Shown: positions 35,985-63,874, numbered from the stretch's first letter. The stretch is 64,000 nucleotides of DNA from Verrucomicrobiia bacterium (GCA_023953615.1 JAMLJH010000002.1:396592-460591); one strand, 5' to 3'. Notes: a model not told the origin generated them from the sequence alone. Translations and numbers: made by a program.

Positions 35985-36941
35985 TCAGCGTACGCCCGCC
36001 TCGTCGAGTTGGAGTCGTCCGCGATTTGCATCCAACGTGGCCCGAACGCCGACGGGCAAGGTGGCGTTCATCGCCACGTGACCGAAGGGCAGGCCGGTAA
36101 CGATCGGAATTTTTAACGGCAGCAGGCGTTCGCGGAAAACATCCTCCAAAGTCTGACGATATTCCTTGGCGGTTTGGGCGCGCGGATCCTGACAGTTGGC
36201 GTTGATTCCGATGGCAATACCCGCGACCTGTTGCAACCGCCCGCAATTCAGCAGGTGGGTCAACAGACGATCCCAGCGATAAGGTTCTTCCCCCACGTCT
36301 TCGAGGAAGAGGATGGCGTTTTTGAAGTTCGGTTGCCACGGGGTGCCGATCAGCGTGTTCAGAATGGTGATGTTGCCGCCGATGAGCCGACCGCGGGCCA
36401 TGCCGCGCCGTAGAATTTTCACCGTTTTACCCGGATAGCCGGTGGCGATGTCGTTTTGCGGCGCCGCGGAAGCGAGGGTACGCAAAAAACTTTGCACCGT
36501 GAACGCGGGGAGCCGTTTGAGCGCAAAGTCGGAGTTCAACATTGGCCCGTGGAAGGAGATCAAACCGGCCTTGGATAGAAACGCGCCGTGCAGTGAAGTG
36601 ATGTCGCTGTAGCCGATGAAAATTTTCGGATTGGCCCGGATCAAACGGTAGTTCAGCCGGGGCAGTAATCGCGCGGTACCGTAACCGCCCCGCACGCAGA
36701 TGATCGCGTTCACCTGGCGATCGGTGAACATCCGCATCAAATCATCGGCGCGCTCGCGGTCGGAGCCGGCGAGGAAACCGAGGCGTTTGTGCGCGTTCGG
36801 CGCGAGCTTGGTTCGGTAGCCGAGTTTTTCGAGCACGGCAATGGCGCGGTCCACATTTTTCGGATCGGGCGGCGCGCTGGCGGGAGCGACGATGCCCAAG
36901 GTGTCACCGGGATTCAGGCGAGGCGGAAAGACAAGTTTCAT
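35985..36941 (-). CDS. ldcA: LD-carboxypeptidase (peptidase S66, LdcA/MccF-like)
   Basis: LNPGDTLGIVAPAS, GYSDITSLH and FGH motifs. The ATG at 36941 lies inside the longer ORF that runs to 36998. Confidence 0.8.
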   Translation of the reverse strand: MKLVFPPRLNPGDTLGIVAPASAPPDPKNVDRAIAVLEKLGYRTKLAPNAHKRLGFLAGSDRERADDLMRMFTDRQVNAIICVRGGYGTARLLPRLNYRLIRANPKIFIGYSDITSLHGAFLSKAGLISFHGPMLNSDFALKRLPAFTVQSFLRTLASAAPQNDIATGYPGKTVKILRRGMARGRLIGGNITILNTLIGTPWQPNFKNAILFLEDVGEEPYRWDRLLTHLLNCGRLQQVAGIAIGINANCQDPRAQTAKEYRQTLEDVFRERLLPLKIPIVTGLPFGHVAMNATLPVGVRATLDANRGRLQLDEAGVR

Positions 36942-36981: not shown

Positions 36982-39543
36982 TTAAATCTGCGGATCAAGC
37001 GGCGGGTTTTCCTTGTCGCGTAATCCGATCAGGAGCGCCTTGGTCTGAGTGTAAGTGGTTTCCAAATCCTGGATGATTTTCATGGCGCCGTAAACTTCAC
37101 CGGAGTTGCCCAGCACTTCCAGTTTTTGACTCAATTCCACGACCTGGCGCGCGCCCATGTTCAGGCTCATGCTTTTCAGCGCGTGAGCGTGAAAGGCGAG
37201 TTGCTTGGGGTCTTCGACGGCTTGCACCAGTTGTTTGATGTGCGTGGGTGCGGTCTCGAGATAGAGGCTGATCAATTCGCTTAACATGCTGACGTCTTCG
37301 GTGGGCGCCATTTCGCGGAGGTCGGCAATGATGCTGGCGTCGAGCAGTCCGGGCGACAGCGACTCGGGATTGCGCATGAAGTAATTGGTGTCGTACTTCA
37401 CCACCTTGGTTGGCCCCCAACGTTCGAGGGTGGCCTGCAAATCCGCCACGCGAACCGGTTTGGAAATGTAATCGTCCATGCCCACGGCGAGACACTTTTC
37501 GCGATCGCCAATCAGCGCATTTCCGGTCATGGCCACAATCACCGGGCGCTTGTCCCGCGTCCAGCGTTCGCAAATGGTCCGGGTACATTCGTAGCCGTCC
37601 ATTTCAGGCATCTGCACGTCCAGGAAAAGCACGTCGTAGGGTTTCTGTTCCAGCGCCTTGATGACTTCAACCCCGTTGGTGGCCAGATCCGCCTGGTACC
37701 CCAATTTGTTGAGGACGCTGATGCCGACCTTTTGGTTGATCGGATTGTCATCGGCCAGCAGGATGCGCAGCGGCAGGCGGCGCGCGAAATCCGAATCGAG
37801 TCCGGGCGTGAACGGAGGTTTGCGATCCGGCTGCACGCGCACTCCGAGCATGCGGCCGAGCGTTTCCAGCAACAAACCGGGACGAATGGGCTTGTGAAGA
37901 AAATGGGCTTCGGTCATCCCCGCCGCGTGCAGGTCTTCGGTGCGCAAACGGGCCGTGGAAAGCAAGAGCAGCGGCAGCGACTTTCGGGTGGGTAATTTTT
38001 GAATTTCGCGCGCCAACGCGAAACAATCCATGCCCGGCAGTTGCGCGTCCAGGATGATGACTGAATATCCGGTGGGTTCGCGCAGTAAGGCCAGCGTCTG
38101 GTCGGCCGTTCCGGCGATGGTAACCTGCATGCCCCAGCTTTCCAGGAGTTGCCGCAAAACCCGCGCGTTGCTCGTGCCGTGTTCCGCCAGGAGCACGGAT
38201 TCGTTGGCAAGCTGCCGTTGTTTTCCGACCCACGCGGGCGGCGTGACCGTGCCGGTGCTCTGCACGAGAATGGTGAAATGGAACGTGGCGCCGCTGTTGG
38301 CGTCGCTGTCCACCCAGATGCGGCCGCCCATTAATTCCACGAGGCGCTTGCTGATCGCCAACCCCAATCCCGTTCCGCCGAAGTGGCGCGTGGTGGATGC
38401 GTCCACCTGGTGAAAGGATTTGAACAGGCGATGCTGCTTTTCCAACGGAATGCCGATGCCCGTATCGCGCACGCTGAAGTGCAGCAACCATTCCTCGCGG
38501 CTGACGGTCGTGCCGTCGGTGGCGCCGTCCAATTCACGAATGGCGGCCGTGGCTGGAGTTACTTCCACCACCACTTCGCCTGAAGGCGTGAATTTGACCG
38601 CGTTGCTGAGCAGGTTGACCAAGACCTGGCGCAGCCGGATCATGTCGCTGAGGATGATTTTGGGCAGCGAATCGTCCACGGTATAAACCAGATCCAACCG
38701 CTTTTCGGCGGCTTTGGTGGCCAGCAACTCCAACGCGTCTTCCACGCAGCCGCGCAATTCAAACGGATGATGGTCAAGCTCCAGTTTGCCGGCTTCGATT
38801 TTGGAAAAATCCAGGATGTCGTTGATGATGGTCAGCAAGGCATCGGCGCTGGTGCGTACGCCTTCCACGTACTCGCGCTGCTCCTCGGACAGGTCGGTGT
38901 CGAACAACAGCGAAATCATGCCGACCACGCCGTTCATGGGCGTGCGGATTTCGTGGCTCATGTTGGCCAGAAACGCGGACTTCGCCAGCGTGGCTTCCTC
39001 GAGCTTCTGGTTCAGGGACAGCAATTGCGAGTTGCCGTTGACCAATTGTTGCTGACTTTCCCGCAGCGCGCGGTAAGCGGCGTCGCGTTGGATTTGATTG
39101 AGGTAGGCGCGCGAGTGATAGCGGATGCGCGCCAGGAGTTCCAGCCGGTCCGGCAGTTTGACCAGATAATCATTGGCGCCCAGGCTGAACGCCTGGCCTT
39201 TGATCTGTGGATTTTCGTTGGTGCTTAAAACGATGATGGGGATTTCGCGGGTGACGGGATTGGCGCGAAATTGCGTGACGAGGCTGAGTCCATCAATGCC
39301 GGGCATGACCAAATCCTGCAGGATCACCGTGGGGCGCAGTTGCGCCGCCAGGGTCAAGGCTTCGCGCGCATCGGCGCAGTAATGGAAATCAATGTCCGGT
39401 TCGGTGACGAGCGCGCGGCGGATGGCTTCGCACACCATGGCTTGATCGTCCACCAGAAGCACCATGACGTGATAATCCGGGAGCTGGGGAAACGTGAGGC
39501 GGTTTCCCTCCGGAGAGTTGGTTTCAGTGTGCTCAGTTGCCAT
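36982..39543 (-). CDS. Hybrid sensor histidine kinase (REC-coiled coil-HisKA-HATPase-pseudoREC-REC-Hpt)
   Basis: N-terminal receiver (LLVDDQ...[10 protein letters not shown]), [19 protein letters not shown], a second receiver ([10 protein letters not shown]...DVQMPEMDG) and a C-terminal Hpt ([14 protein letters not shown]). It overlaps cheB by 11 nt. Confidence 0.9.
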
Positions 39544-40570
39544 GATCTTGACCCAAGATAGAAATGAGGCGTGGCGCGATTTTGTCCAGCGCTAAAATTT
39601 CCCGGGCCGCCTGCAATTCCACCGCGGCCTTGGGCATGCCGTACACCGTGCTGCTAAGTCGGTTTTGCGCAATCGTGAGGTGGCCCGCAGTGCGCAAGGC
39701 TTTTAATCCCTCGGCCCCGTCGCGCCCCATTCCGGTCAGGAGGATTCCCGTGACCGAACCGCGCCAGTATCGGGCGACACTATGGAAGAACACATCCACC
39801 GACGGACGATAAGTGCTCGAGTCCGGCTGTGCGGAATAACCCAGGTGCATCGTGTGGGACATCACGAGATGACGATCTTTCCCGGCGAGATAAACGCGTC
39901 CGGGCGCCAAACGATCTCCTTCCGCAACCACGCGCACCCGCAACGGAGTGCGGGCGGCGAACCAACCCGCTAATCCGGGCGCGAACTGTTGGTCCACGTG
40001 TTGCACCACGACAATTGCGGCAGGGAAGGTGGCCGGCAGCTCGCCCAGGATGGTGGTCAACGCCGCCGGCCCGCCCGCTGAGGCGCCGATCACAACCAAC
40101 TTGGTGAGTTGGCGGGGTTGCGCTTCAATAGGAAGTGACGGGGCTTTGGCTTTACGGGATTTCAGCGACTTGGGGGCGCCCAGCAGTTTTTCAATGGTAC
40201 CGATTTTCGCCAGCAATGGAGCAACCTCTTTCGGTTTTTGTGTGGCTCCGAAAATTGGAACGTCCACCGCGTCCACGGCACCCGCGCCCATCGCGGCAAA
40301 GACGTGGGCGATGTGGTCTTCGACCTTGGCCGTGGCTACCACGATGGCGCAAGGGTTTTTGGCCATGATTTGTCGCGTGGCTTCGACGCCATCCAATCGC
40401 GGCATGAACAAATCCATCAAGATCAGGTCCGGGCGAGCCTGCTCGCAACGCGCGACGGCCTCCGCGCCATCTTTGGCGATCCAGATGATTTCGTGTTGCG
40501 TATGCGCGTTGATACTGCGCCGCAACGCTTCGGCCGCGAGCACCAGATCGTTGACGATGCCGATTTTCAC
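39533..40570 (-). CDS. cheB: Protein-glutamate methylesterase CheB/WspF-like
   Basis: REC domain plus a CheB methylesterase domain ([19 protein letters not shown]). Confidence 0.92.
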
Positions 40571-42852
40571 CAGCCGGCCTCCCCAATGAGATCCACCACG
40601 GCCCGGATCAGGGTTTCATCCTGAAAGCTGCCCTTGGTTAGATAATAGTCCGCGCCTGCGTTGAGGCCGCGCAACCGGTCTTCCTCGCGATCTTTATAGG
40701 AAACAATCATGACCGGAATGAGCCGCAGACGCTCTTCATTTTTAATCAAAGTGGTCAGCTCGATGCCGTCCAGCCGCGGCATATCCACGTCGGTAATCAC
40801 CAAGTCGTAATCTCCGGCGCGCACGGCGTTCCAACCATCCATGCCGTCCACGGCCACGTCGGCGACGTAACCGGCGGCGTCCAGCAATTTGCGTTCGAGT
40901 TCGCGCACGGTCAGGGAATCTTCCACCACCAGCACGCGTTTCTGCCGGTGACCGGTTGCCGGCCCGGTCGCGGGAGGAATGGCCGTATGCCGACCGCTGG
41001 TGGCAAATTTGTCAATGCTGCGCAGCAAGTCTTCCACGTCCACAATCAGCACCGGCGCCCCGTCGTCCATCAAGGCCGCGGCGCTGATGTCCTTGATTTT
41101 GCCAAGCCGCGGGTCCAGCGGTTGGACGACGAGTTCCCGTTCGCCCAGGAAGCGATCCACTTGCAAACCGTAATGTTGATCCGGTCCGCTCAAAATGATG
41201 AGGGACAGATCGCCGGAACTGTCTGGCGTTGCCCCCGAGACATCCAAAATTTGTTGCGCGTTGAGCAGGCCGATGTACTGGTCGCCCCGTCGGAAATGGG
41301 GCTGTCCTTCGAGCGTCAGAATTTGCGGGCGAGGCAGTTTCAAACTGCTCACGATCTGCGTCAGCGGAAATGCGTAAGGCTCGCCGCCGATTTCCACCAG
41401 CAACGCGCGCAATACGGAAAGCGTCAACGGCAGTTGCAGTTGAATGCGCATGCCGCGCCCTTTCAAGGTGGACACGCGCACGCTCCCCCGGACGCTGCGG
41501 ATCATGTTTTGCACGATGTCGAGGCCGACGCCGCGTCCGGAAATTTCCGTCACCGTTTCGCGCAGGGTGAACCCGGGCAAAAAGAGGAATTGCAACAACT
41601 CCGGTTCGGTCATCGTTTCCACCGCCGCCGGCGCGATGAGCTTGCGCCGGTTGATGGCCTCGCGAACTTGTTGCGGATCCAAGCCCGGCCCGTCGTCGGC
41701 CAGGGTGATTTGCAACATTCCGGCGCTGTGCCGCGCTTCCAGGCGGATGGTGGCCTCGGGCGGTTTCCCTTGTTCGAGCCGGACGGCGGGAGTTTCCGCG
41801 CCATGATCCACCGCGTTGCGCAACAGGTGGGTCAAAGGCGCTTCGAGTCGCTCGAGGATGTCACGGTCCACCTGGGTGGTTTCACCGAGAATTTCAAAAC
41901 GGACCTGTTTGCCCAGGCTTTGCGCCAGATCACGCACCATGCGATGGAAGTGTTGGACGCCATCGCCGAAGGGGCGCATCCGGGTGCGCAGCGCTTCCAG
42001 GTAGAGGCGGTTCGCCAGTTGGGCGGTACGGCGTTCGTGTTGATCCAGTTCCTGTAACCGCTCCTCCAATTGCTGCGACAGCTCGCGAATTTGTTGCGCG
42101 GCGTTGGCCGCCGATTGTTGCCTGACCGGGTCAACGTCGTTGTGGCGCAACTGGTCGAGGGTGGCTTCGAGCGCGGTTTGCTGGCGTTTGATCCGTTGCA
42201 ACTGCGCGGTGAACGGACGCAGCCAACGCGATTCCACCAACGTCTCACTCGCCAGCGCCAGCAGGCGATTGAGATTTTCCGCCGACAGCCGCAAATAACG
42301 CTCCGTGGTTTCCGCCGGCGGCGCGGCGCCGGTGGCGGTGGCAATTTCCGCGCTGCGGAAGTGGGTGGTATCGCCACTGGCCGGGGCGTCGGTGATTTTA
42401 ATGGGCGGAAATTCACCGGTGGGCGCGGCGATGATGGCGTGAATTTCCAGAAGCCATTGCTCCAGATGCGCCTGATGTCGCTTCTCCCAGTTCGCCGGAT
42501 TTTTGTCGGCTTGTTTGCCAAGCTCGGCCAACCAATCCACGCCGCGGAGCAGCGCGTTGGTGTGCTCGGGTCGCGGCGTCAGCCGGTTTTGTTGCGCGGC
42601 AACAAAGTAATCCTCCAAGGCGTGCGCCACCTGGATGCCGGCTTCCAAATTGACGATCCGCGCCGCGCCTTTGTAGGAATGGGCCGCGCGCATGAGCGAT
42701 TCCAGTTGTTCCGGGGTGGCGGGAGTGCGCTCCAACGCCAGGATGCCCGCGTTCAACAAGGCCGTCTGGCTCTCGGCCTCCGTGCGGAAAAGTTCCAGCA
42801 TCGTGAGGTCGGCCACAGAGCTTGCCTGGTTTGACTCGGGTTTCTTCATCAA
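40567..42852 (-). CDS. cheA: CheA-type histidine kinase with C-terminal receiver (WspE-like)
   Basis: Hpt (AHSYKGAARIV), dimerisation and HATPase domains (DDGPGLD, GRGVGLD), a CheW-like domain and a REC domain (VVEDSLTVRE...DVDMPRLDG). Confidence 0.92.
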   Translation of the reverse strand: MMKKPESNQASSVADLTMLELFRTEAESQTALLNAGILALERTPATPEQLESLMRAAHSYKGAARIVNLEAGIQVAHALEDYFVAAQQNRLTPRPEHTNALLRGVDWLAELGKQADKNPANWEKRHQAHLEQWLLEIHAIIAAPTGEFPPIKITDAPASGDTTHFRSAEIATATGAAPPAETTERYLRLSAENLNRLLALASETLVESRWLRPFTAQLQRIKRQQTALEATLDQLRHNDVDPVRQQSAANAAQQIRELSQQLEERLQELDQHERRTAQLANRLYLEALRTRMRPFGDGVQHFHRMVRDLAQSLGKQVRFEILGETTQVDRDILERLEAPLTHLLRNAVDHGAETPAVRLEQGKPPEATIRLEARHSAGMLQITLADDGPGLDPQQVREAINRRKLIAPAAVETMTEPELLQFLFLPGFTLRETVTEISGRGVGLDIVQNMIRSVRGSVRVSTLKGRGMRIQLQLPLTLSVLRALLVEIGGEPYAFPLTQIVSSLKLPRPQILTLEGQPHFRRGDQYIGLLNAQQILDVSGATPDSSGDLSLIILSGPDQHYGLQVDRFLGERELVVQPLDPRLGKIKDISAAALMDDGAPVLIVDVEDLLRSIDKFATSGRHTAIPPATGPATGHRQKRVLVVEDSLTVRELERKLLDAAGYVADVAVDGMDGWNAVRAGDYDLVITDVDMPRLDGIELTTLIKNEERLRLIPVMIVSYKDREEDRLRGLNAGADYYLTKGSFQDETLIRAVVDLIGEAGW

Positions 42853-42904
42853 CTGACTTCGCTTGGTTTACAGGTCAAATCCGATTTCAAAAGTCTGGCC
42901 GTGA

Positions 42905-43933
42905 TTACGTTAAGTTTCGGTTCAACGCCGCCATCAGTGCTTCCGGATCGAGTAATCCGACGGTGTGTTGACGCCACGGAAAAATGCCGTTGGCGCAATG
43001 GCGTCCACCCTGAACGAACAGGCTGGGTGGTTTGCGCAAATCGGCATTGTGAAACCGGTGAACGCCATAAACTTCGTCCACCGGGAACGCCGCGCGTTGC
43101 CCGCGCCATTCGGCGACCATCAATCGCTCCTGCCGCTGGCCGTGGATCAAGGCTCTGGGAGCTGTTTCCAATCCAAGCAAACGATTCAGCGCGGCGCAGA
43201 TCAGCAGTTCGCCGCGAATGTTGACGATGCCGAGCAACACCGTGTGGCGACAATGTGGAATGGTGTGCAGCGGCCGGCGCTCGGCAACTTCCTGAAAAAT
43301 TTCCGTGGGTAACGCAAGCCATTCCCCCAGCAACCGGAAAATCACGACGCTGGTTTTGGCCGGAGTGGCGACACGTTTTTCCGGCGCAAAATGCAAGCTC
43401 CATTCGCGCCGGTAATCGGATGGAATGGGGCGATTGAGAAATTGCGATGCCGCTCGCGCATACGTCGGGCAGTGATGGCAGTGGCCATGTTGCGCGAGTT
43501 TCGAGCAGGAATGATCGCCATACACGCCGATGCGATTCCAACAATCGTCCACCGGCGCGGGCAGGTTGCCGGTTTGGGTGACCGATAGTTTGAAGGACGG
43601 CCCGGCAATGGTCCGCTCGATCCGCTGGAGGTGTTTCCCCACGGGTTCGGGTTCAACGTGAACCACTTCGGCTTCGACCCGGACGAAATGTTGGGTGCCG
43701 GGTTCATCGGGCAAATGGGTTTCCGTTCCGGTATTGCGTGTGAGTTTGGGCGGCGGTGGCGGAGTGGCAGGATTGACGACGGCATCCGCGGTTGTGACCA
43801 AATTGGTTGGAAGCGGATCCTCAGCGGGCGGCGGTTCAGCCGCCCAAGCCTCCGCTTCGGCGCGCGTCAAATGTTGCGTGCCCGGCTTGTCGGGTTTCGC
43901 GGGCGCGGCAGGATCGGGCTTGGCGCGTTTCAC
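42905..43933 (-). CDS. CheW-domain protein with an N-terminal repeat and Cys/His cluster (WspD position)
   Basis: C-terminal CheW fold preceded by C-X11-C-X8-C-X2-C (CWNRIGVYGDHSCSKLAQHGHCHHC) and a duplicated PGTQH[LF]xRxEAE segment. Confidence 0.8.
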   Translation of the reverse strand: MKRAKPDPAAPAKPDKPGTQHLTRAEAEAWAAEPPPAEDPLPTNLVTTADAVVNPATPPPPPKLTRNTGTETHLPDEPGTQHFVRVEAEVVHVEPEPVGKHLQRIERTIAGPSFKLSVTQTGNLPAPVDDCWNRIGVYGDHSCSKLAQHGHCHHCPTYARAASQFLNRPIPSDYRREWSLHFAPEKRVATPAKTSVVIFRLLGEWLALPTEIFQEVAERRPLHTIPHCRHTVLLGIVNIRGELLICAALNRLLGLETAPRALIHGQRQERLMVAEWRGQRAAFPVDEVYGVHRFHNADLRKPPSLFVQGGRHCANGIFPWRQHTVGLLDPEALMAALNRNLT

Positions 43934-43940
43934 TTAAACC

Positions 43941-45200
43941 TCAAGGGCTGGACTTGTTTCCGATTTCCAGTTCACGCTGCCGGGCAACCCGGGCCAGGCG
44001 CCGTCGGAAAAGTTTGGCGCGGGCCGCGTGGCCTTGTTGTTCCCACCAAACCGCCGAACGTTCGAGTGATTCGTAGTGCGTCGGATCGAGATAAAGGGCC
44101 TTGCGATAAAAATCAATCGCCGGTTGATCGTTCCGCACTTCGTGAATCAAACCGATCAGGTAGTAACTTTCCGCGCAATCCGGGTGTTGCCGCAGATGAC
44201 TCCAGCATAAGGCCACCGCTTCTTCGTGCCGCCCGCTGGCCGCCAGTTCGTGCGCGTGACTGAGCAGCGCCGCGTCGCGACCGGTTGATCCTGCCGCGCC
44301 TGCAGCCAACGTGATCGGTCGCACCAACGGAATGAGTTGGCCCGATCGGTCCGGGATTGGGTCGGGCTGAATGGTTTTGGAACGTGAACGGCGCGGCGAG
44401 CGGTGCGAAAGGAATTTTCCCTTGTGACACGCAAAAGCCAGCGGCCAGCCAGCGTGGATGAAGCCGCATTTGGCGGCGATGGGCGGTTCCGCGGGGCCGA
44501 CAAAAAGCGTTCCGTCCGGGGCGAGCGAACGGTGCAATTTGGCCAGGGCGGAAACCTGGGTGGCGCGATCAAAATAGATCAGCAGATTGCGGCAGAAGAT
44601 GAAATCGTAGGGCGGCACCGCCACCAGAAAGTCGGCATCCAGAATGTTGGCACGTTGGAAGGAAACCTGGCGGCGCAGCGTTGCGTTCAGCGCAAAGCCG
44701 CCTTTCACCGGGCGGAAGTGGCGCTCGCGAAATTCGAGGTTCGTGCCACGAAAAGAATTTTTGCCGTAAACGCCGCGCGCCGCGCGGGTCAACGCGTTTT
44801 GCGAAATATCCATCGCGTCAATTTGAAACGCGGTGGCCGCCACTCCGGCATCCACCAGGGTCATGGCCACCGAAAACGGTTCTTCGCCACTGGAGCAGGG
44901 GACGCTGAGGATGCGCAGCGTCTGTTTCGGATGCCGGGGCCGCCACTGTTCCGTTACGATTTTGGCAAAGGCGTCGAACGGCGCGCGATCACGGAAGAAC
45001 CAGGTCTCGGTGACGACGATGGCTTCAATCAGGTCGTCGAGTTCTGCGGGCGATTCGTGCAATTTCTGTTCGTAATCGGCGATGGATTTGAGTCCGTGCC
45101 GCTCCATGCGTTGCTGGATGGTCTGCCGGATGCGCCCGGAGCCGATGGCGGCGGCTTCCAAACCGATGCGGCGGCGCAACAAGGTTTCAATCCGTAACAT
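43941..45200 (-). CDS. cheR: CheR methyltransferase with C-terminal TPR region (WspC-like)
   Basis: CheR SAM-binding domain (ETWFFRD, CSSGEEPFS, FCRNLLIYF) plus a TPR-like tail. Confidence 0.9.
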   Translation of the reverse strand: MLRIETLLRRRIGLEAAAIGSGRIRQTIQQRMERHGLKSIADYEQKLHESPAELDDLIEAIVVTETWFFRDRAPFDAFAKIVTEQWRPRHPKQTLRILSVPCSSGEEPFSVAMTLVDAGVAATAFQIDAMDISQNALTRAARGVYGKNSFRGTNLEFRERHFRPVKGGFALNATLRRQVSFQRANILDADFLVAVPPYDFIFCRNLLIYFDRATQVSALAKLHRSLAPDGTLFVGPAEPPIAAKCGFIHAGWPLAFACHKGKFLSHRSPRRSRSKTIQPDPIPDRSGQLIPLVRPITLAAGAAGSTGRDAALLSHAHELAASGRHEEAVALCWSHLRQHPDCAESYYLIGLIHEVRNDQPAIDFYRKALYLDPTHYESLERSAVWWEQQGHAARAKLFRRRLARVARQRELEIGNKSSP

Positions 45201-45663
45201 GCGTGGACTCCAATAAGGGGTTTGGATTTGGCGCGTAATTTTCCTGCTGCAACAGCCGCTCCAAATCGAGGAGATAAATGACGCCTTCCGCGTCTTTCAA
45301 GAAACTGTCGGCCAGCGGTTTTCCCACCACCGGGATCTCGGTTTTCACCAAATCCTCGGGTTGGCAGCGCAGCGTTTCCGTGGCGCGCTCGACGATGAGG
45401 CCCAGCCGCCGTTCGGGCGCGGCTGCGGTTTGGTGCTGGATGATGATGATGCGCGTGCTGAAATGTTCGGCGGCCGGTCGCCCGAGGAGCAGCGCGCATA
45501 AATCCACCGCCGCCACCGGTTGGCCGCGATAGACGAACACCCCGGCCAGTCCCGGCGGCGCTTGCGGAATTTTTTTCAATTCCAGCAACGGCACAATCTC
45601 CAGCACGCGCCGGGCTTCCAGGGCGAATCGCTCGTTTCCAAGTTGGAACAACACAAACAACAT
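45187..45663 (-). CDS. cheW: CheW coupling protein (WspB-like)
   Basis: 158-aa single CheW domain that overlaps cheR by 14 nt. Confidence 0.88.
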   Translation of the reverse strand: MLFVLFQLGNERFALEARRVLEIVPLLELKKIPQAPPGLAGVFVYRGQPVAAVDLCALLLGRPAAEHFSTRIIIIQHQTAAAPERRLGLIVERATETLRCQPEDLVKTEIPVVGKPLADSFLKDAEGVIYLLDLERLLQQENYAPNPNPLLESTHVTD

Positions 45664-45667
45664 GGCG

Positions 45668-47275
45668 TCATTTCACCTCGAGCTGGAAGCGCGCCACGCT
45701 GGATTGAAGACTGCGGGCGGCTTCGTTCAACTGTTCGATGGCCAGATTGGACTGGCGCAGCGAGTCGGCGGTTTGATGCGCGGCTTCGCTGAGCTGGGTC
45801 AAAGTTTCGCTGATCTGCTGCGCGCCGGTGGACTGGGCGTGCATGCCTTCGCTCACGGTGGTGAAGCGCGGGGTCAACAATTGCACCTGGCTGATGATTT
45901 GCGCCAGTTGCTTGCTGACCTGGTTGATTTCATCCACGCCTTGCCGGACTTCTTCGGAAAATTTATCCATGCCCATCACGCCCGCCGTCACCGCCGATTG
46001 CATTTCCTTGACCATCTTCTCGATGTCGTAAGTGGCGACCGCCGTTTGGTCGGCCAGGCGGCGGATTTCCATGGCCACGACCGCAAAGCCCAGTCCGTAT
46101 TCGCCGGCTTTTTCCGCTTCGATCGCGGCGTTGAGCGAGAGCAGATTGGTTTGATCCGCCACCTTGGTGATGGTGGTGACGACGGCATTGATGTTCCCCG
46201 CTTTTTCGTTCAACGCCGCCAGCCGGCTCCCGATGGTTGCCGAAGCGGCCATGAGCTGGCGCATGGTGTTTTCCATGCGGGTGATGCCGTTTTGACCGCT
46301 GCCCGCCAGGTTTCCGGTTTCATGCGCCACGTCCACGACTTCCTGCATGGTGAGGTCGAGTTCGCGCGAGGTGGCGGAAATTTGCTTGGAAGTCGCGCCG
46401 ATTTCGGCAGTCGTGGCGGCGATTTCCGTCGTCGTGGTTTGTTGTTCGCGCGAGGTGGCGGCAATCTGCGTCGCGGTAATGTTCACCTGCACGCCGGAGC
46501 GTTGCACTTGTCCGACCAGAATGGAAAGGTCATCCGCCAGCCGGTTCAAACCCTCGCCCAATACGCCAAACTCGTCCTTGCGGTTCAACACCACGCGCTT
46601 GGTGAAGTCGCCGTTGCGCATCCGCTCCATGACGTCCACCAACTGCTTCAGGGGAATGGTGATGGCTGAGGAAAGCACAAAGCGGAACACCAGAAAAACC
46701 AGACCCAGCATGGCCGCCAACCCCAGCACCACGAACAACCCGGTCCGGCTGGCCTGCAGGTCCGCCTCGTGCCGCACTTGCTCGAATGCCATTTTAACTT
46801 TGTCCACCACGTCTTTCCGTTGCTGAATGACGGCGGGATTGGATTTCAGGAAGAAATCGCGCGCCTCCAGCGGGTCCTTTTCCAATCGCTCGATCACTCC
46901 TTTAACGTGTAGTTCGAGCGTCAAGGTTACAAAGCCGTCCAGCGCGTCCAGGGCGTCCTGGACACTTTTATGGGAATGAAGTTGGCGCAATTCCAGCACG
47001 CAACTTCGGAGGTCTTCCATTCCCGCTTTGATATTCGCGTATTCCGCTTCCGCGATTCGGGGTTTGCGGAATTCAAGCACCGTGGCCCGCAGGGCGTCGC
47101 TGATCACGACCAGGTCATAGCCGATGCGGGTTTCCGCCACGTGCAACTGCTCGCTGCTGTGCAGACTGCGTTCGCGGCTGTGCTGGCTGAAAAAGGCCAG
47201 TCCCACGGCGATCAGGATGATCGTGATGAAGATCACGAGCATCGTGTAAAGGCGTTTCCAAATTGACAGATTCAT
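45668..47275 (-). CDS. Methyl-accepting chemotaxis protein (WspA-like)
   Basis: Two TM segments, a periplasmic helical domain, a HAMP domain and the signalling hairpin (LLSLNAAIEAEKAGEYGLGFAVVA). Confidence 0.92.
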   Translation of the reverse strand: MNLSIWKRLYTMLVIFITIILIAVGLAFFSQHSRERSLHSSEQLHVAETRIGYDLVVISDALRATVLEFRKPRIAEAEYANIKAGMEDLRSCVLELRQLHSHKSVQDALDALDGFVTLTLELHVKGVIERLEKDPLEARDFFLKSNPAVIQQRKDVVDKVKMAFEQVRHEADLQASRTGLFVVLGLAAMLGLVFLVFRFVLSSAITIPLKQLVDVMERMRNGDFTKRVVLNRKDEFGVLGEGLNRLADDLSILVGQVQRSGVQVNITATQIAATSREQQTTTTEIAATTAEIGATSKQISATSRELDLTMQEVVDVAHETGNLAGSGQNGITRMENTMRQLMAASATIGSRLAALNEKAGNINAVVTTITKVADQTNLLSLNAAIEAEKAGEYGLGFAVVAMEIRRLADQTAVATYDIEKMVKEMQSAVTAGVMGMDKFSEEVRQGVDEINQVSKQLAQIISQVQLLTPRFTTVSEGMHAQSTGAQQISETLTQLSEAAHQTADSLRQSNLAIEQLNEAARSLQSSVARFQLEVK

Positions 47276-47377
47276 GAGCGCAGATGGCTGGGACGCATAA
47301 TCACGCTCCCAAGCTGGAAAAACAAGAAGGTTTGTTTATCTCCCGCCATCGGGTAAGCTGGCAGAGCCAATAAAACC

Positions 47378-47995
47378 ATGAAGGCATTACCAATAATTCT
47401 GGCTTCTCAATCACCACGCCGCCGGGAATTGCTCCACCTGCTCGACCTGCCGTTTCAAGTCGTGCCCAGCGCGGCCAAAGAAGTTCACGACAAACAACTG
47501 ACCGCCTGGGAAATGGCGCAAGTAAACGCCTACCGCAAAGCGCGCGCGGTCGCCCGACGTTTTCCCGACGCGCTGGTCATCGGCGCGGATACCATGGTTT
47601 ATCTGGATCGGGACACCCGCCTGTTCGGCAAGCCGACCAGCCATCGCGACGCGGCGGACATGCTGAAAGCGCTTTCCGGTCGCGTCCATGCCGTCATCAC
47701 TGGCGTGTGCCTGCTGCACCTGCGCGAGCGGCACCGTCGGGTGTTCACCGATTGGACGGACGTGCAATTTCATCCGTTGACCGCTGCGCAGATTCGCGCT
47801 TATCTGCGGTTGATTGATCCGTTGGACAAGGCCGGCGCTTATGCGATTCAGGAGCATGGCGACCGCATTATTGCGGCGCTCTTTGGCTCCTACAGCAATG
47901 TGGTGGGGCTGCCCTTGGAACGCTTGCGCGAGGAACTCAAGGCGTTCGGATTTTTTCAGCGGCGGATCAAGCCCTTGAAGCGGCGGAGCAAATAG
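47378..47995 (+). CDS. maf: Maf-like nucleoside triphosphate pyrophosphatase
   Basis: LASQSPRRRELL, GADT and GAYAIQ motifs. Confidence 0.9.
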   Translation: MKALPIILASQSPRRRELLHLLDLPFQVVPSAAKEVHDKQLTAWEMAQVNAYRKARAVARRFPDALVIGADTMVYLDRDTRLFGKPTSHRDAADMLKALSGRVHAVITGVCLLHLRERHRRVFTDWTDVQFHPLTAAQIRAYLRLIDPLDKAGAYAIQEHGDRIIAALFGSYSNVVGLPLERLREELKAFGFFQRRIKPLKRRSK

Positions 47996-48186: not shown

Positions 48187-49011
48187 TCAGGAGCGACCGG
48201 TTAGCGCGACCGCGCTGTGCTCGATCCAGCCGAGGTGATGGGCTTCATCGGTCACTTGCAGCCAGGCGTCTTTTTGATCCAACACCCGCAGTTCCGCGCC
48301 ATCTTGCGCCGTGAACGCCGTGGCGGATTCTTCAAACGGACTGGTGCGCACGGCGGCCTGATGGCGAATCACAATGGCGATGCTTCCCGGCGCCTGGGTT
48401 GCCGCCGCCAGTTTGGCTCCGATCAACAAGGCAAGGGAAGCGACGACCCCCATCGCAATCCAGCCGCGCAACGCCGTGCGCCAGTGCGGGCGGAGCACCC
48501 GCGCGATGAGCAGCGCCAACGTGATCCAGATCGCCGCCGTCGCCAGTCCCAGCCATTCCGAGTTGGATAATGCGCCGAGTTTTTGTTGCCAGCTTGATGG
48601 AATGAAACGCGGGCCGTGAACCTGGTTGCGCGCAAATTTCAAGTTCGCGCGCACATCCGGGTCGCGCGGCGTCAGCGCTTCCGCCTGGCGGTACGCCGCG
48701 ATCGCTTGACCGAGGTGACCCGCCTTGAAACGCGCGTTGCCGAGATTGAAATAAAGCGCGGCGGAGGTGGTCCCGTTTGTGAGGATTTGCTCGTAAGCGT
48801 CCGCTGCCTCGGCAAATTTGCTTTGCGCGTAAAATTGATTGGCCGCGTCAAATTGCGTGGCCGGATCCGCTGCTCGGCTGAAGGGCGTGAAGCTGAACAG
48901 AAATAGCAGCGCGAAACCGGCGGTTGCCCCAAAGCGAAGAATGTGGGGGTACGAAACATCTGTCCGCTTGAGCGGCGTCCAACCCATGCTGGTTTGACTC
49001 GGGTTACTCAT
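48187..49011 (-). CDS. TPR plus SH3b domain membrane protein (BatE-like)
   Basis: TPR repeats (FYAQSKFAEAADAYEQIL..., YFNLGNARFKAG...), TM segments and a C-terminal SH3b-like domain. Its start overlaps the batD-like stop. Confidence 0.6.
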   Translation of the reverse strand: MSNPSQTSMGWTPLKRTDVSYPHILRFGATAGFALLFLFSFTPFSRAADPATQFDAANQFYAQSKFAEAADAYEQILTNGTTSAALYFNLGNARFKAGHLGQAIAAYRQAEALTPRDPDVRANLKFARNQVHGPRFIPSSWQQKLGALSNSEWLGLATAAIWITLALLIARVLRPHWRTALRGWIAMGVVASLALLIGAKLAAATQAPGSIAIVIRHQAAVRTSPFEESATAFTAQDGAELRVLDQKDAWLQVTDEAHHLGWIEHSAVALTGRS

Positions 49012-50825
49012 GATTTCACCTCGTCCAATTCGCGCAGCACGGATTCCAGTTTGGGAATGAAAGCCGCCAGTTCCTGACTCGAACGGATCGGCGCGTAGCG
49101 CGCCAGATTGGTGGCCTGGAAAAGTTCCTGCGTCGCGGCCAGCGTGGTTTCCGTCACGCCGCGCGGACGGAGTTTCTCGTCAACAACCGCTTCCGTGATG
49201 GCTGAGGCCGGCAGATCGAGGCGCTCGCCGAGCTTCTCTTGCAACAGACGCATGAGTTCCGCGAAGAATGCCTCCGATTGGTTTTGCTCCGCCAGGACGC
49301 GCAATTTCTCCTGACCGTCCCGCAACGTGGCTTCCACCTGCCGGCGCCGACGCAGACGCGGGTTGTTCGTCAGCGCCTCAGTGCGTCTGCGCCACCACAT
49401 CGCGCCAATCAACGCCAGCGCTGGCGCGAGATTCAAAGTGACGAAAGTCGGACTGAAACCCACGGAGGCCGGGCCGGACGATGTTTTTCCGAGTCGCGTT
49501 TTGATGGGCACGATGTCGAGTTGCGGCGGTGGCGTGTGATTCGCAGTCGGGTGATTGGCCACGACGGTTGGCGCGACCACCGTTCCGCCGGGACGAACGA
49601 TGAGCGGCGTTCCGGGTTGGCTCAGAGTTTGGTACGTTTTCGTCTCGGGATTGAAGAAGGCAAAGGTGAATGGTGGCAATTCCTTCAGGTCGGGGTTTTC
49701 CGGCGACACGATTTGCTCGAAGGTTTTTGTGCCCTGCAGACCCAGTTGATCGGAGGTTTCGATCCGCGACGTGGGCGGGTACGTTTTGAAATCTTTCCAA
49801 GTGGTCTGCTCGGGCAGCGTAAGCGCATCCAACCCGCCATGACCGCTGATCGCCACCCGCACGGTAATCGGATCGCCCGTGGTGACATTGGTCGGGCCGG
49901 CGCTGACCGTCATGGAGAAATTTCCCACCGCCCCGGTGAAATTGGCCGGACGACCTTCCGCCGGCAACGGCTGGCATTGTAATGATTGCGCGTCGCTGGC
50001 GAGGGAAAGTTGCCGCCGTTCTTTGCTGAACATGCCGAACGGATCAAAGAGATCGCGCCGCCGGTTGTTTGACGGCAGTTCAATTACCATCGCGGCGGTG
50101 ATGGGACCGACCGTGAGCGGCCCGGTTTTGATGGGTGTCAAACTCACCGCAATCGGCACCACGGTGTAGGCCGCGTTGCCGACTTGCATCCGCCGCCGCG
50201 GCAGTTCCGCCATTTTGCCGACGGTCAGGCCTTCCGCCGGCGTGGCGGTAAATTGAAATTGCCCCGCGTTCACGCCATCGCGCAGGTAGAGCTGAAACTC
50301 GCCGGTGATGATTTCGCCGAGGTAAACATTGGTCTTGGGCAGTTGCAATTGCAGAAAGGCGGGTTGCGATCCGTGGGCCACCGCCTCGGGCGAAGGTGTT
50401 CCGGCCTTGAGTACGGTGAGGTGGATGGGTTGGGTGATTAGCGTCTGTTGGCCCAGCGTCACCTTGACCGGCGGAATGACAAACTCGCCCACGCGCAACG
50501 GGGTGATGGTGTAATTGTGTGTGATCTTGGCCGTAGTCTGGCCGTTGACAAAACTGAACTGGCTCGAAGGGCCGTTGTAGGCGAACTGAAGTCCGGATAC
50601 GGCGGGCGCCGGCGGCGTGCCTTCGGGTTGCGCTCCGTCAAAGGTCAGTGAGAAACCCACGCGTTCGCCGAGATAAACCGTGTCCCGATCCACACTGGCC
50701 GTAAAGGTGACGGCGGTGGCAACCATCATCGAGAGCCACCAACCCAATCCACCCGCCAGCCCGCGCGACACTGCGGTGCCGCGCTGCCGCCGGATGATTT
50801 TATTCTGCCGCGAAAACCTTTCCAT
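49008..50825 (-). CDS. BatD-like (oxygen-tolerance family) protein
   Basis: 605 aa with a signal/TM segment, repeated beta-rich modules, one late TM segment and a helical tail, matching the layout of BatD proteins. Confidence 0.55.
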   Translation of the reverse strand: MERFSRQNKIIRRQRGTAVSRGLAGGLGWWLSMMVATAVTFTASVDRDTVYLGERVGFSLTFDGAQPEGTPPAPAVSGLQFAYNGPSSQFSFVNGQTTAKITHNYTITPLRVGEFVIPPVKVTLGQQTLITQPIHLTVLKAGTPSPEAVAHGSQPAFLQLQLPKTNVYLGEIITGEFQLYLRDGVNAGQFQFTATPAEGLTVGKMAELPRRRMQVGNAAYTVVPIAVSLTPIKTGPLTVGPITAAMVIELPSNNRRRDLFDPFGMFSKERRQLSLASDAQSLQCQPLPAEGRPANFTGAVGNFSMTVSAGPTNVTTGDPITVRVAISGHGGLDALTLPEQTTWKDFKTYPPTSRIETSDQLGLQGTKTFEQIVSPENPDLKELPPFTFAFFNPETKTYQTLSQPGTPLIVRPGGTVVAPTVVANHPTANHTPPPQLDIVPIKTRLGKTSSGPASVGFSPTFVTLNLAPALALIGAMWWRRRTEALTNNPRLRRRRQVEATLRDGQEKLRVLAEQNQSEAFFAELMRLLQEKLGERLDLPASAITEAVVDEKLRPRGVTETTLAATQELFQATNLARYAPIRSSQELAAFIPKLESVLRELDEVKS

Positions 50826-54603: not shown

Positions 54604-54670
54604 AAATCTCGGGCAGGAACGGCTTTGAGGTCAGACTGTCCGATTGACGGCAGGAGGCTGCTTGGTCAGG

Positions 54671-55684
54671 ATGAAACGGATGGCGTTCATTATCCGTAAC
54701 TCAATTGTGTCGCTGCTGATGGTCCTGTTACTCGCCAGTTGTACCACGGTGCGAAAATCTGACGTTTCGCTGAACGGGTCGGCCATGGCGTTGATGGCCG
54801 CCACGGCCGATCTGGCGGCGGCGGGCGCGTCGCGGTTACCGGCGGATTATATCTGGGCAACACTGCGGGATCGGGCTGACGATCCCCAAGTGCAAGCGGC
54901 TTTTGATCGCGCGTTGCTCCGTCCCACCCGGGCGGCCCAAGGCGCGTTGTTACGCGCACTGGAGTTCAAGTTCATTCACGATCCGGGATGTTCAGGGCTG
55001 GATATTTTGGGGCCGGAGTTGAGCGATCACTTTCGCAACTTCAACTGGCAGGAGGATGATTTTCCGGGTGGCCCGAAAGGTCCGAATGAGCAGTTTGCCG
55101 ATGTCATGGTGGACGCCTTGGACCTGGTGCGTCCGGAGCGCCGGGCGAACCGTTCGCGCGCCGCGGTTGTTTTGCGGCAGGAGGTCAATGACGGCGTTTG
55201 GAATTATATCACCAACCAATGGCTGGCCGTTCCGGGACAGGAGCAGTGGAAGCTGAATCGTCACGCGCTGTCTTCGTTTGAGCGGATGCGCGAACAGGCG
55301 CGAACCGAAGGCGTGGATTTGATCATCCTTTCGTCGCATCGTTCTCCGCAGACGGCGCAAGCCAATGCGGCTCGCGCGGGCAATGCCAATGCCGTGGCCA
55401 GTTTTTCCGCGCACTCGCTCGGGCTGGCGATTGATTTCAAGATGAGTCAGGACGGGGAATTTCAAACGCGCGAAGGGTTCACCCGTCCGATGTCGGAACT
55501 GGTGCGGATGCGCCAATCGCCGGTTCATAAATGGCTGCTGCTGCGCGGCGAGGCGTTCGGATGGTATCCCTACCAAAATGAACCGTGGCACTGGGAGTAT
55601 AATCCGCCCGGTTTTCGCGATTTGTACTGGGCTGGTTTTCCGGGCGGCGCCCCCGCACGCGGGATCATCATTGACGGGCCATAA
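54671..55684 (+). CDS. Peptidase M15 (VanY/D-Ala-D-Ala carboxypeptidase-like) lipoprotein
   Basis: Lipobox (LLLASC) and SSHRS..Q, SAHSLGLAIDF, EPWHWEY motifs. Confidence 0.8.
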   Translation: MKRMAFIIRNSIVSLLMVLLLASCTTVRKSDVSLNGSAMALMAATADLAAAGASRLPADYIWATLRDRADDPQVQAAFDRALLRPTRAAQGALLRALEFKFIHDPGCSGLDILGPELSDHFRNFNWQEDDFPGGPKGPNEQFADVMVDALDLVRPERRANRSRAAVVLRQEVNDGVWNYITNQWLAVPGQEQWKLNRHALSSFERMREQARTEGVDLIILSSHRSPQTAQANAARAGNANAVASFSAHSLGLAIDFKMSQDGEFQTREGFTRPMSELVRMRQSPVHKWLLLRGEAFGWYPYQNEPWHWEYNPPGFRDLYWAGFPGGAPARGIIIDGP

Positions 55685-62744: not shown

Positions 62745-62794
62745 TGAGAAAGTAACTTCGAGATGGAGTGCTGAGCAAAGGTCGGTTGTCGCGC

Positions 62795-63874
62795 ATGAAA
62801 CGCATCTTGGTCATTGATGATGATAATGATCTGCGGGGTCTGGTGGAGACCGCGCTGCGCGGGCGTGGTTACGAGGTGCTGACGGCAACGGGAGGTGAGA
62901 AGGGCATCGCCATCGCGTCGCGCGAGCTGCCGGATCTGGTTTTGTGCGACGTCAATATGGCGCCGCTGGATGGGTATGCGACGCTGTCCGCGTTGCGCCG
63001 TGAACGAACCACCGCCACCATTCCGTTCATCCTGATGACCGGGCGGGCGGATCAAGTCGGCATGCGCCAGGGCATGGAATTGGGCGCGAACGATTATCTC
63101 CCCAAACCTTTCAGCCTGGAGGATCTCTACGCGGCGGTGGAGACCCGCTTGAAAATGGCCGAGCAGATGCGGGAGCAGGCCGGCGAGGCGTTGCATGATT
63201 TGCGTCACAACATCAGCATGATGTTGCCGCACGAATTCCGCACGCCGTTGAATGGCATCGTCGGCTTTGGTGAAGTGCTCGCGGCGAATCCCGCGGAGGA
63301 CATTGCCGAAATGGGGCAAACCATCGTGGATAGCGCGATGGCATTGCACCGTCTGGTGGAGACGTTCCTCGCGTACTCGCAATTGGAAATTTTGCGCGTC
63401 AACAAAAAGGAGACGGAGCTGCTGCGAAAGCAATGCTGCGCGGGCGACTTGTTGACCGAACGGGAAGCCAGCCGGCAGGCGGCGGCGGTCGAGCGCGCCG
63501 GGGATTTGGAATTATCTTTGCAACCCGTCCTCGTTGCCATTTCCGATGAGTACTGGGTGAAGTTGGTGGGCGAAATTATTCATAATGCGTTCCGCTTTTC
63601 TACCGCCGGCCAACCAGTCCACGTCAGCTTGATCACTTCCGGAGACCTCGCGGTATTACAGGTGACGGATCGGGGCCGCGGGATGAGCGCGGATCAAGTA
63701 TCCCGCATCGGCGCGTTCATGCAGTTCGATCGCCACAAGCACGAGCAGCAGGGGTTGGGTTTGGGATTAACCATCGCCCGGCGGATTGCTGAACTGCACG
63801 GGGGCAGTTTGGTGGTGCAGAGCGAATTGAAGGCCGGCACCACGGTCACGGTAAAATTGCCACTTGCGACTTGA
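62795..63874 (+). CDS. Response-regulator/histidine-kinase hybrid (REC-HisKA-HATPase)
   Basis: ILVIDDDNDLR...CDVNMAPLDG receiver, HEFRTPLNG, and GLGLGLTIA. Confidence 0.88.
   Translation: MKRILVIDDDNDLRGLVETALRGRGYEVLTATGGEKGIAIASRELPDLVLCDVNMAPLDGYATLSALRRERTTATIPFILMTGRADQVGMRQGMELGANDYLPKPFSLEDLYAAVETRLKMAEQMREQAGEALHDLRHNISMMLPHEFRTPLNGIVGFGEVLAANPAEDIAEMGQTIVDSAMALHRLVETFLAYSQLEILRVNKKETELLRKQCCAGDLLTEREASRQAAAVERAGDLELSLQPVLVAISDEYWVKLVGEIIHNAFRFSTAGQPVHVSLITSGDLAVLQVTDRGRGMSADQVSRIGAFMQFDRHKHEQQGLGLGLTIARRIAELHGGSLVVQSELKAGTTVTVKLPLAT

Follow-up and report, generated by a model that had tools for sequence, protein, structure and literature searches.

A Wsp-type chemosensory cluster of a Verrucomicrobiia bacterium with a hybrid histidine kinase in the output position

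Gene content and layout of the locus

We examined a 64,000-nucleotide (nt) stretch of a Verrucomicrobiia genome (GCA_023953615.1, JAMLJH010000002.1:396592-460591), referred to below as the window, with positions counted from its first letter. Between 36982 and 47275 its minus strand carries seven contiguous open reading frames (ORFs) in the order MCP (methyl-accepting chemotaxis protein), CheW, CheR, CheW-like protein, CheA-REC, CheB and hybrid histidine kinase. An earlier note on this DNA had described them as a Wsp-like chemosensory operon in which the kinase takes the place held in Pseudomonas by the REC-GGDEF protein WspR, and had proposed domain calls as a check; Pfam returned strong matches for every one of the seven genes. 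The cluster and the region upstream of it comprise:

47276-47377, no strand: divergent spacer of 102 nt with the MCP gene on one side and maf on the other (from coordinates)
45668-47275, minus strand: WspA-type MCP, 535 amino acids (aa); Pfam HAMP and MCPsignal
45187-45663, minus strand: WspB-type CheW, 158 aa; Pfam CheW 7e-24
43941-45200, minus strand: WspC-type CheR methyltransferase, 419 aa; Pfam CheR 1.6e-42
42905-43933, minus strand: WspD-type CheW-like protein, 342 aa; Pfam CheW 5e-20
40567-42852, minus strand: WspE-type CheA-REC, 761 aa; Pfam Hpt, HATPase_c, CheW and Response_reg
39533-40570, minus strand: WspF-type CheB methylesterase, 345 aa; Pfam REC and CheB_methylest
36982-39543, minus strand: hybrid histidine kinase of the layout REC1-stalk-DHp-CA-REC2-REC3-Hpt, 853 aa; Pfam

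The MCP and CheW genes are 4 nt apart, the CheW and CheR genes overlap by 14 nt, 7 nt separate the CheR gene from the WspD-type gene and 52 nt the latter from the CheA-REC gene, and the last two junctions are again overlaps, of 4 nt (CheA-REC/CheB) and 11 nt (CheB/kinase). All junctions match the ORF coordinates, and the contiguity described in the earlier note, including the overlap of the kinase gene with cheB, holds throughout, as does the divergent position of maf (47378-47995) upstream of the MCP gene. The operon promoter would be expected in the divergent spacer that separates these two genes; a promoter scan scored no sigma-70-like site there, and the single promoter-like site that it gave is not on the strand required. 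Terminator-like sites numbered 27, near the expectation from shuffled sequence (18.5, standard deviation 4.7). The other end of the unit lies 2 nt from the stop of a converging microcompartment aldolase gene.

The Wsp core proteins

The receptor matches MCPsignal at 7.6e-33, together with HAMP, and by hydropathy and Pfam consists of a first transmembrane segment at about residues 10-30, a helical periplasmic domain of ~150 aa, a second transmembrane segment at ~179-201, HAMP and a signalling domain. Its cytoplasmic part is 61% identical to WspA of Pseudomonas nitroreducens, whereas its periplasmic sensor domain is unrelated to that of the Pseudomonas system. In comparisons with the same species, the CheW protein encoded at 45187-45663 shares 35% identity with WspB and the CheR protein 39% with WspC. 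The latter protein, labelled CheR-TPR in the earlier note, has a C-terminal extension of ~170 aa with a weak TPR signal; the TPR call falls below the cut-off here (TPR_1 at residues 345-375, 21.2 bits against 27.8), with clearer TPR matches in the CheR proteins of relatives. CheA-REC, composed of a Hpt/P1 domain (His58 in the motif HSYKG), a kinase core, a CheW-like P5 domain and a C-terminal receiver at 640-751, is 51.5% identical to WspE over its full length, and this orthology speaks against a CheA of a flagellar class. What the earlier note had named as refuting its reading, a flagellar-class CheA or an independently transcribed kinase with no phosphotransfer link, gained no support; the kinase gene overlaps cheB by 11 nt. 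CheB (CheB_methylest 2.3e-59; NCBIfam PRK12555 at 446 bits, above cut-off) is 49% identical to WspF.

The WspD-like protein, 37% identical to WspD of P. nitroreducens, has its CheW domain at 196-335. The first ~110 residues of its ORF form a lineage-specific proline-rich extension; relatives, which are ~215-280 aa long, are without it, and BLAST alignments to them start at residue ~112-128. Between this extension and the CheW domain lies a cysteine motif, CWNRIGVYGDHSCSKLAQHGHCHHC, following the pattern CW.RIGV.GD.SC..L....HC.NC. The strict pattern was present in 42 of 65 WspD proteins, and in more when a looser one was allowed, and the motif occurs in most WspD proteins of Pseudomonas, Achromobacter, Cupriavidus, Collimonas, Mesorhizobium and Verrucomicrobiota, as well as in Burkholderiales and other groups. 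Judging from the loci compared, it would be a hallmark of the family, and its Cys/His cluster probably binds metal. That the cluster might be a peculiarity of the present organism was rejected on this family-wide occurrence; only the ~110-residue proline-rich repeat ahead of the motif is specific to the present genome.

Kessler (2021) counted a system as Wsp if every core protein reached 30% identity or more with its Pseudomonas or Burkholderia counterpart, and all six proteins, WspA to WspF, lie above that level (35-61% against Pseudomonas). Other Wsp features present are the wspA-B-C-D-E-F order followed by an output gene, a CheA with a C-terminal receiver and a WspR-type receiver-stalk; a GGDEF diguanylate cyclase output is absent. 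The Wsp order and identity proposed in the earlier note thus stood, and the comparison confirms the locus, at the level of sequence, as a true Wsp-family chemosensory operon.

A single chemosensory system in a genome without flagellar genes

The genome searched is 4.15 Mb in two contigs and 95.5% complete. It contains three CheW-domain matches, all of them in the Wsp cluster, one CheA, and a single MCPsignal match, again in the cluster. Searches of the whole genome found neither FlhA nor flagellin, and no GGDEF, EAL or PilZ domain; the bacterium appears to be without cyclic di-GMP (c-di-GMP) signalling. Because there is one MCP, one CheA and no flagellar gene, the Wsp cluster can be taken as the sole chemosensory system of a non-flagellated, soil-type bacterium. 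A flagellar or c-di-GMP output was therefore rejected, in agreement with the expectation, voiced before these searches, of an output other than flagellar control or c-di-GMP synthesis. Wsp is regarded as a chemosensory system of the alternative cellular function (ACF) class, and a pathway of ACF type is likewise suggested here by three surrogates, namely Wsp orthology, the multidomain regulator and the absence of flagellar genes. Those kinase homologues that carry a taxon name belong to Verrucomicrobia subdivision 3, Pedosphaera and Limisphaerales.

One could suppose that the system steers surface motility, by type IV pili or gliding, and not gene expression: pili are controlled by some chemosensory systems, and this genome, which has no flagella, does have pilin-like N_methyl genes. 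However, the core proteins are orthologues of WspA-F and not of Pil-Chp types, no pilus genes are linked to the cluster in the loci examined, and the output ends in a Hpt domain, which requires another receiver to act on. We consider steering of motility very improbable and favour a phosphorelay output.

The output protein: a WspR-type receiver on a ShkA-like kinase

Pfam finds three Response_reg stretches, HisKA (1.7e-22), HATPase_c (3e-27) and Hpt (7.8e-11) in the 853-aa output protein, and no GGDEF domain; NCBIfam gives generic similarity to BarA, TorS and ArcB only, all below cut-off. Its parts are:

39016-39477, minus strand: REC1 and coiled-coil stalk, residues 23-176 (alignment to WspR structures)
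38254-39015, minus strand: dimerisation and histidine phosphotransfer domain (DHp; H-box His197) and catalytic ATP-binding domain (CA), residues 177-430 (HisKA, HATPase_c)
37846-38205, minus strand: REC2, residues 447-566, the least conserved domain
37408-37773, minus strand: REC3, residues 591-712 (best Response_reg stretch 594-706)
37024-37278, minus strand: C-terminal Hpt, residues 756-840, with His787 in the motif HALKS (Pfam Hpt)

The receiver-stalk aligns with the WspR structures 3BRE and 3I5A (P. aeruginosa and P. syringae) at 210 bits (E 4e-61) and 65% identity over residues 23-176; across the comparisons made it is 65-70% identical to WspR, with 68% in the comparison that also covered Pseudomonas WspA-F. 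The H-box begins only ~20 residues past the WspR-type stalk. An AlphaFold2 model of the kinase (mean pLDDT 77, pTM 0.43), usable for helix continuity only, has one unbroken helix at 133-214 (pLDDT ~70-90), in which the last helix of REC1, the stalk and the His197-bearing helix of DHp are continuous.

Across 121 kinase orthologues of 64-99% identity, the phosphorelay residues are essentially invariant: D32, D33, D77, T108 and K129 in REC1, H197, N314 and D360 in the kinase core, and D598, D599, D642, T673 and K695 in REC3, a canonical receiver; H787 of the Hpt domain is kept in 119. Together with the absence of GGDEF from both protein and genome, this supports the non-cyclase terminal output claimed for the locus. 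Mean identity across the orthologues is 43% in REC2, against 76-89% in REC1, DHp, CA and REC3. In the present copy E454-H455 replaces the acidic pair of REC2 while D499 and K551 are retained, and most orthologues keep E-D...D...S/A...K, the His at the second acidic position belonging to the copy described here. Because REC2 is only mildly degenerate, the label pseudo-receiver under which it had been entered is only partly apt; the rest of that reading, a REC-HisKA-HATPase-REC-REC-Hpt layout in 853 aa, was correct.

Residues 192-709 align end to end with Caulobacter ShkA (PDB 6QRJ) at 232 bits. The two proteins share a DHp-CA-(degenerate REC)-REC core, whose poorly conserved middle receiver has both linker-tethering arginines: R532 and R554, equivalent to R324 and R344 of ShkA, are invariant in the orthologues, and so is an aspartate (D583) in the linker between REC2 and REC3. 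In ShkA the two arginines tether the linker by which the kinase is locked, and they also bind c-di-GMP (PMC6969517). ShkA has no N-terminal input domain, has its Hpt protein (ShpA) separate and is opened by c-di-GMP, whereas the present kinase has a WspR-type receiver in front and Hpt fused behind, in a host without c-di-GMP machinery. A kinase gated by c-di-GMP at REC2 as in ShkA, with the Wsp input secondary, is scarcely credible: no GGDEF, EAL or PilZ domain was found in the 95.5%-complete, two-contig genome, F, L and E stand where ShkA has its c-di-GMP contacts Y338, S347 and Q351, and the DDR linker motif of ShkA does not align. A ShkA-like autoinhibition may have been retained without the nucleotide. 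REC2 would probably act as a ShkA-like regulatory or tethering module and not as a step of the relay.

Proposed signalling path and alternatives to it

We think it likely that the Wsp array here has a kinase output, in which phosphorylated WspE would act on D77 to gate a His197-Asp642-His787 relay to a regulator unlinked to the cluster. The single transmembrane receptor, with its periplasmic domain, would signal through WspB and WspD to WspE, and WspC and WspF would adapt the receptor by methylation. From His58 of WspE phosphate would pass to D77 of the WspR-type REC1. Because the last REC1 helix runs unbroken via the stalk into DHp, phosphorylation of REC1 would be predicted to change the stalk/DHp coiled coil and with it the autokinase output of His197, from which phosphate would travel to Asp642 in REC3, to His787 in the Hpt domain and on to a regulator encoded elsewhere. 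We infer every phosphotransfer step in this scheme, as well as its sign and the final target.

WspR is the accepted substrate of WspE (PMC8552884), and the proposed step from WspE to D77 has direct biochemical precedent in Rhodospirillum centenum, where phosphotransfer in vitro from CheA3 to REC1 of CheS3, a hybrid kinase encoded in its cluster, has been shown (PMC3868531, 2013). The Che3 cluster resembles the present one in logic only, in that a CheA-REC is encoded with a hybrid kinase that starts in a receiver. CheS3 is a REC-REC*-PAS-HWE kinase signalling to a linked CheY3, whereas the present kinase is of the HisKA/ShkA type with its own REC-REC-Hpt; it has a WspR-type receiver, no PAS domain and no linked CheY, and the sign of regulation may differ.

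Another system of related design is WspH of the Burkholderia cenocepacia complex, in which a WspR-like receiver is fused to a histidine kinase with an output independent of c-di-GMP (PMC8552884). Such H-type clusters, like the present one, combine WspA-F with a WspR-like receiver on a histidine kinase instead of on GGDEF. The WspH-like protein of B. anthina, however, is 377 aa long and encoded 5' of wspA, whereas the present kinase gene lies 3' of wspF; its stalk is 35 residues shorter, its core ~20% identical, and it has no REC-REC-Hpt. Orthology with Burkholderia WspH was rejected on this comparison with the B. anthina cluster, in which only the receiver is shared, and because stalk length, core and C-terminal domains all differ, the two kinases are best seen as independent fusions onto one receiver type.

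As to sign, we lean modestly towards D77 phosphorylation switching the kinase on, since in the WspR system and in the WspH system alike the link behaves as a positive one; the preference is kept small because in R. centenum phosphorylation of REC1 by CheA3 inhibits the output of CheS3 (PMC3868531). The same wiring with the opposite sign, in which phosphorylation by WspE turns the kinase off or into a phosphatase and the array relieves a constitutive phosphorelay, draws on that case and on the layout shared with CheS3, an N-terminal receiver before the kinase core. Yet the receiver-stalk of the present kinase is an orthologue of WspR and not a CheS3-type receiver, and in the WspR and Burkholderia WspH systems gain of function in wspA or wspE and loss of the output have opposite phenotypes (PMC8552884), implying a positive link. 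We therefore view sign reversal as somewhat unlikely, if worth keeping in mind, and hold activation by the array to be the more likely direction.

Several points weigh against this proposal, beyond the inhibition seen in CheS3. The pTM of the kinase model makes domain packing unreliable. In ~35 loci, no response regulator conserved beside the cluster was found, and likewise no separate Hpt gene. Finally, orthologous kinases lie away from che genes in three genomes (L023, L024 and G351), and adjacency of kinase and che genes is thus not obligatory. This last observation would also suit a kinase independent of the Wsp array, either with REC1 fed from elsewhere or as a stand-alone ShkA-like kinase whose position is inherited synteny, as would a paralogue in the same genome (C1:283007-285556) that is not linked to che genes. 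Such independence is hard to square with the 11-nt overlap with cheB, with adjacency in >20 loci of two phyla, with the orthology of REC1 to a known WspE substrate (the N-terminal receiver of the unlinked paralogue is only 27% identical) and with the lack of any other CheA in the genome; we judge it very improbable and prefer the array-gated kinase. In L023 and L024 the kinase receivers are ~74% identical and a WspE of 49-51% identity is encoded on another contig; in G351 (locus L095), of the same order, the kinase has 60% receiver identity and the best CheA-REC is only 30% identical.

An exception to the lack of linked receiver genes is a divergent Verrucomicrobiota locus (L060), where two REC-(Hpt-like)-REC genes follow the Wsp kinase. 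Their products are full-length homologues, at 29-32% identity, of two REC-Hpt-REC proteins of the present genome. The gene for one of these (C1:285553-286743) sits directly after that of the che-unlinked kinase paralogue, which is 849 aa long and 40% identical to the present kinase, with an N-terminal receiver that is not WspR-like; the other (C1:487280-488458) adjoins a REC-HisKA-HATPase gene, the pair spanning C1:487280-489715. Inspection of the neighbourhoods of these two genes was uninformative. Receiver-containing proteins number ~41 in the genome, and among 20 checked were six of NtrC type, eight of NarL type and three REC-DUF4388 proteins. Sequence analysis does not single out a final acceptor among them, and the link to REC-Hpt-REC proteins suggested by L060 offers one lead.

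Distribution, phylogeny and output swapping

A receiver-stalk alignment scan of one genome per species returned 80 loci; this query was far more specific than a search of the phylum with the whole kinase, which gave mostly unrelated hybrid kinases matching the core alone. In nearly all of the 80, genes in Wsp order are closed by one whose product begins with a WspR-type receiver-stalk, and the order itself was seen in 60+ loci of Proteobacteria, Verrucomicrobiota and Acidobacteriota. The stalk is followed by GGDEF in Proteobacteria, by kinase-REC-REC-Hpt (~850 aa) in Pedosphaerales-type Verrucomicrobiota, by kinase-REC-REC without Hpt (~700 aa) in other Verrucomicrobiota and one Bryobacteraceae (Acidobacteriota), whose kinase is 56% identical to the present one, and by nothing in Chthoniobacteraceae. 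The seven-gene order with a kinase is kept in contigs whose kinases are 66-74% identical, and extends over the >20 related loci to ~56% kinase identity, Acidobacteriota included, which is far beyond chance.

In an even set of 401 Verrucomicrobiota genomes the receiver-stalk occurred in 30, of which four were of the kinase type and 26 had frames of ~325-515 aa. All seven non-kinase frames examined with Pfam were REC-stalk-SpoIIE/PP2C, most of them ending Wsp-order clusters. A protein of ~400-420 aa in which the WspR-type receiver-stalk is joined to a SpoIIE/PP2C phosphatase stands last in many Wsp-order clusters of Verrucomicrobiota.

In a tree of WspE and WspF from 61 systems, all GGDEF systems form one well-supported group. 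The system of the window belongs to another, a Pedosphaerales group that is likewise well supported, and neither group includes the remaining kinase types. Since the tree is unrooted and its sampling biased toward the query, it supports no claim on the direction of output change. Wsp has been described as exclusive to beta- and gammaproteobacteria, with kinase-type outputs only 5' of wspA in Burkholderia (PMC8552884); the loci compared here indicate that these statements on range and on the position of the kinase output are too narrow.

Ten Verrucomicrobiota-type Wsp loci, L023 and L024 among them, come from differently titled public metagenome-assembled genomes (the titles include Bifidobacterium, Klebsiella, Akkermansia muciniphila, Chitinophaga pinensis and Acidoferrum), which look mislabelled or mis-binned. 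In six loci of the Burkholderia cepacia complex, the gene after a cheB-like one encodes a WspR-type REC-stalk protein with GG[DE]EF, the GGDEF being called by motif only; wspA-E were not found within 10 kb of them. In B. anthina a WspH-type cluster is present on the same chromosome, ~450 kb from the GG[DE]EF-type locus, a double occurrence that sits uneasily with the published claim that no genome has both output types.

Linkage to ldcA

The earlier note had also placed an LD-carboxypeptidase gene ~40 nt downstream of the kinase gene on the same strand, and this is what we find:

35985-36941, minus strand: LD-carboxypeptidase LdcA, 318 aa; Pfam Peptidase_S66 and S66C

Its most likely start is the ATG at 36941, 40 nt past the kinase stop. 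In ~16 of 20 Pedosphaerales-type loci, the flanks of which otherwise differ, ldcA adjoins the kinase gene; in one locus (L003) it stands at the other end of the cluster, still adjacent. It is absent from the kinase-type loci outside Pedosphaerales. In the Pedosphaerales clade ldcA is thus probably the eighth member of the unit. The hint at an envelope- or division-related output in the earlier note has this clade-specific linkage as its basis. In Pseudomonas, Wsp reacts to contact with surfaces and to stress on the envelope (PMC9170161), and from this sensing and the linkage to ldcA one might hazard the guess of an envelope- or peptidoglycan-related output.

Relation to known systems

With Pseudomonas Wsp the present system has in common the same seven-position order, orthologous core proteins, the WspD cysteine motif and the WspR-type receiver-stalk. 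After the stalk, WspR continues into a GGDEF cyclase, whereas here DHp-CA-REC-REC-Hpt follows, in a host without c-di-GMP enzymes or PilZ. A census of CheR-TPR clusters, which included Pedosphaera strain Ellin514, found HisKA and HATPase in ~40% of their multidomain regulators, some of these with extra REC and HPT domains (Munoz-Martinez 2012, PMC3447774). Clusters of the ACF class (Wuichet and Zhulin 2010, as cited in PMC3868531) share with ours a multidomain regulator, a CheA-REC and a CheR that is extended at its C terminus; those are known as catalogue entries only.

The design is therefore not new: receiver-kinase outputs have been catalogued and partly tested (PMC3447774, PMC3868531, PMC8552884), and the finding leaves the current picture of chemosensory signalling unchanged. 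We found no specific description in the searchable literature of REC(WspR)-ShkA-like-Hpt systems from Verrucomicrobiota or Acidobacteriota, and what is new, in a minor way, is the phylum, a core resembling ShkA, the linkage to LdcA within one clade and the swapping of outputs (GGDEF, kinase, PP2C) on one conserved receiver-stalk. Contrary to the most recent survey, Wsp is not confined to beta- and gammaproteobacteria, and its conserved receiver-stalk seems to work as a general adaptor for different outputs. Having only one receptor and one CheA, and neither flagella nor c-di-GMP, the bacterium would offer a very clean natural case of an array serving solely as the input of a phosphorelay. It would lend itself well to questions about the stimuli of Wsp-type receptors and about the gating of a kinase by a receiver via a coiled coil.

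A bolder reading, which we hold to be doubtful, would see Wsp as a portable sensor with the receiver-stalk as its adaptor, the kinase output as old as the cyclase or older, and an envelope response with LdcA in Pedosphaerales. In lineages free of c-di-GMP signalling, the Wsp array would then be wired directly to a ShkA-type kinase, with the WspR receiver-stalk fused onto a core that c-di-GMP opens in related kinases. The kinase output is the type found in those Verrucomicrobiota and Acidobacteriota loci that stand apart from the one GGDEF clade of Proteobacteria.

Other genes near the cluster

Further genes near the cluster lie at 62768-63874 and 54644-55684 on the plus strand and at 48187-49011 and 49008-50825 on the minus strand. 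The genes nearby encode an orphan REC-HisKA-HATPase protein (368 aa), a VanY/M15-type D-Ala-D-Ala carboxypeptidase-like protein, a protein with TPR and SH3 domains and a BatD-domain protein. Among these neighbours and LdcA, conserved linkage to the Wsp cluster is seen for LdcA only; LdcA and the VanY/M15-type gene amount to two peptidoglycan peptidase genes within 20 kb.

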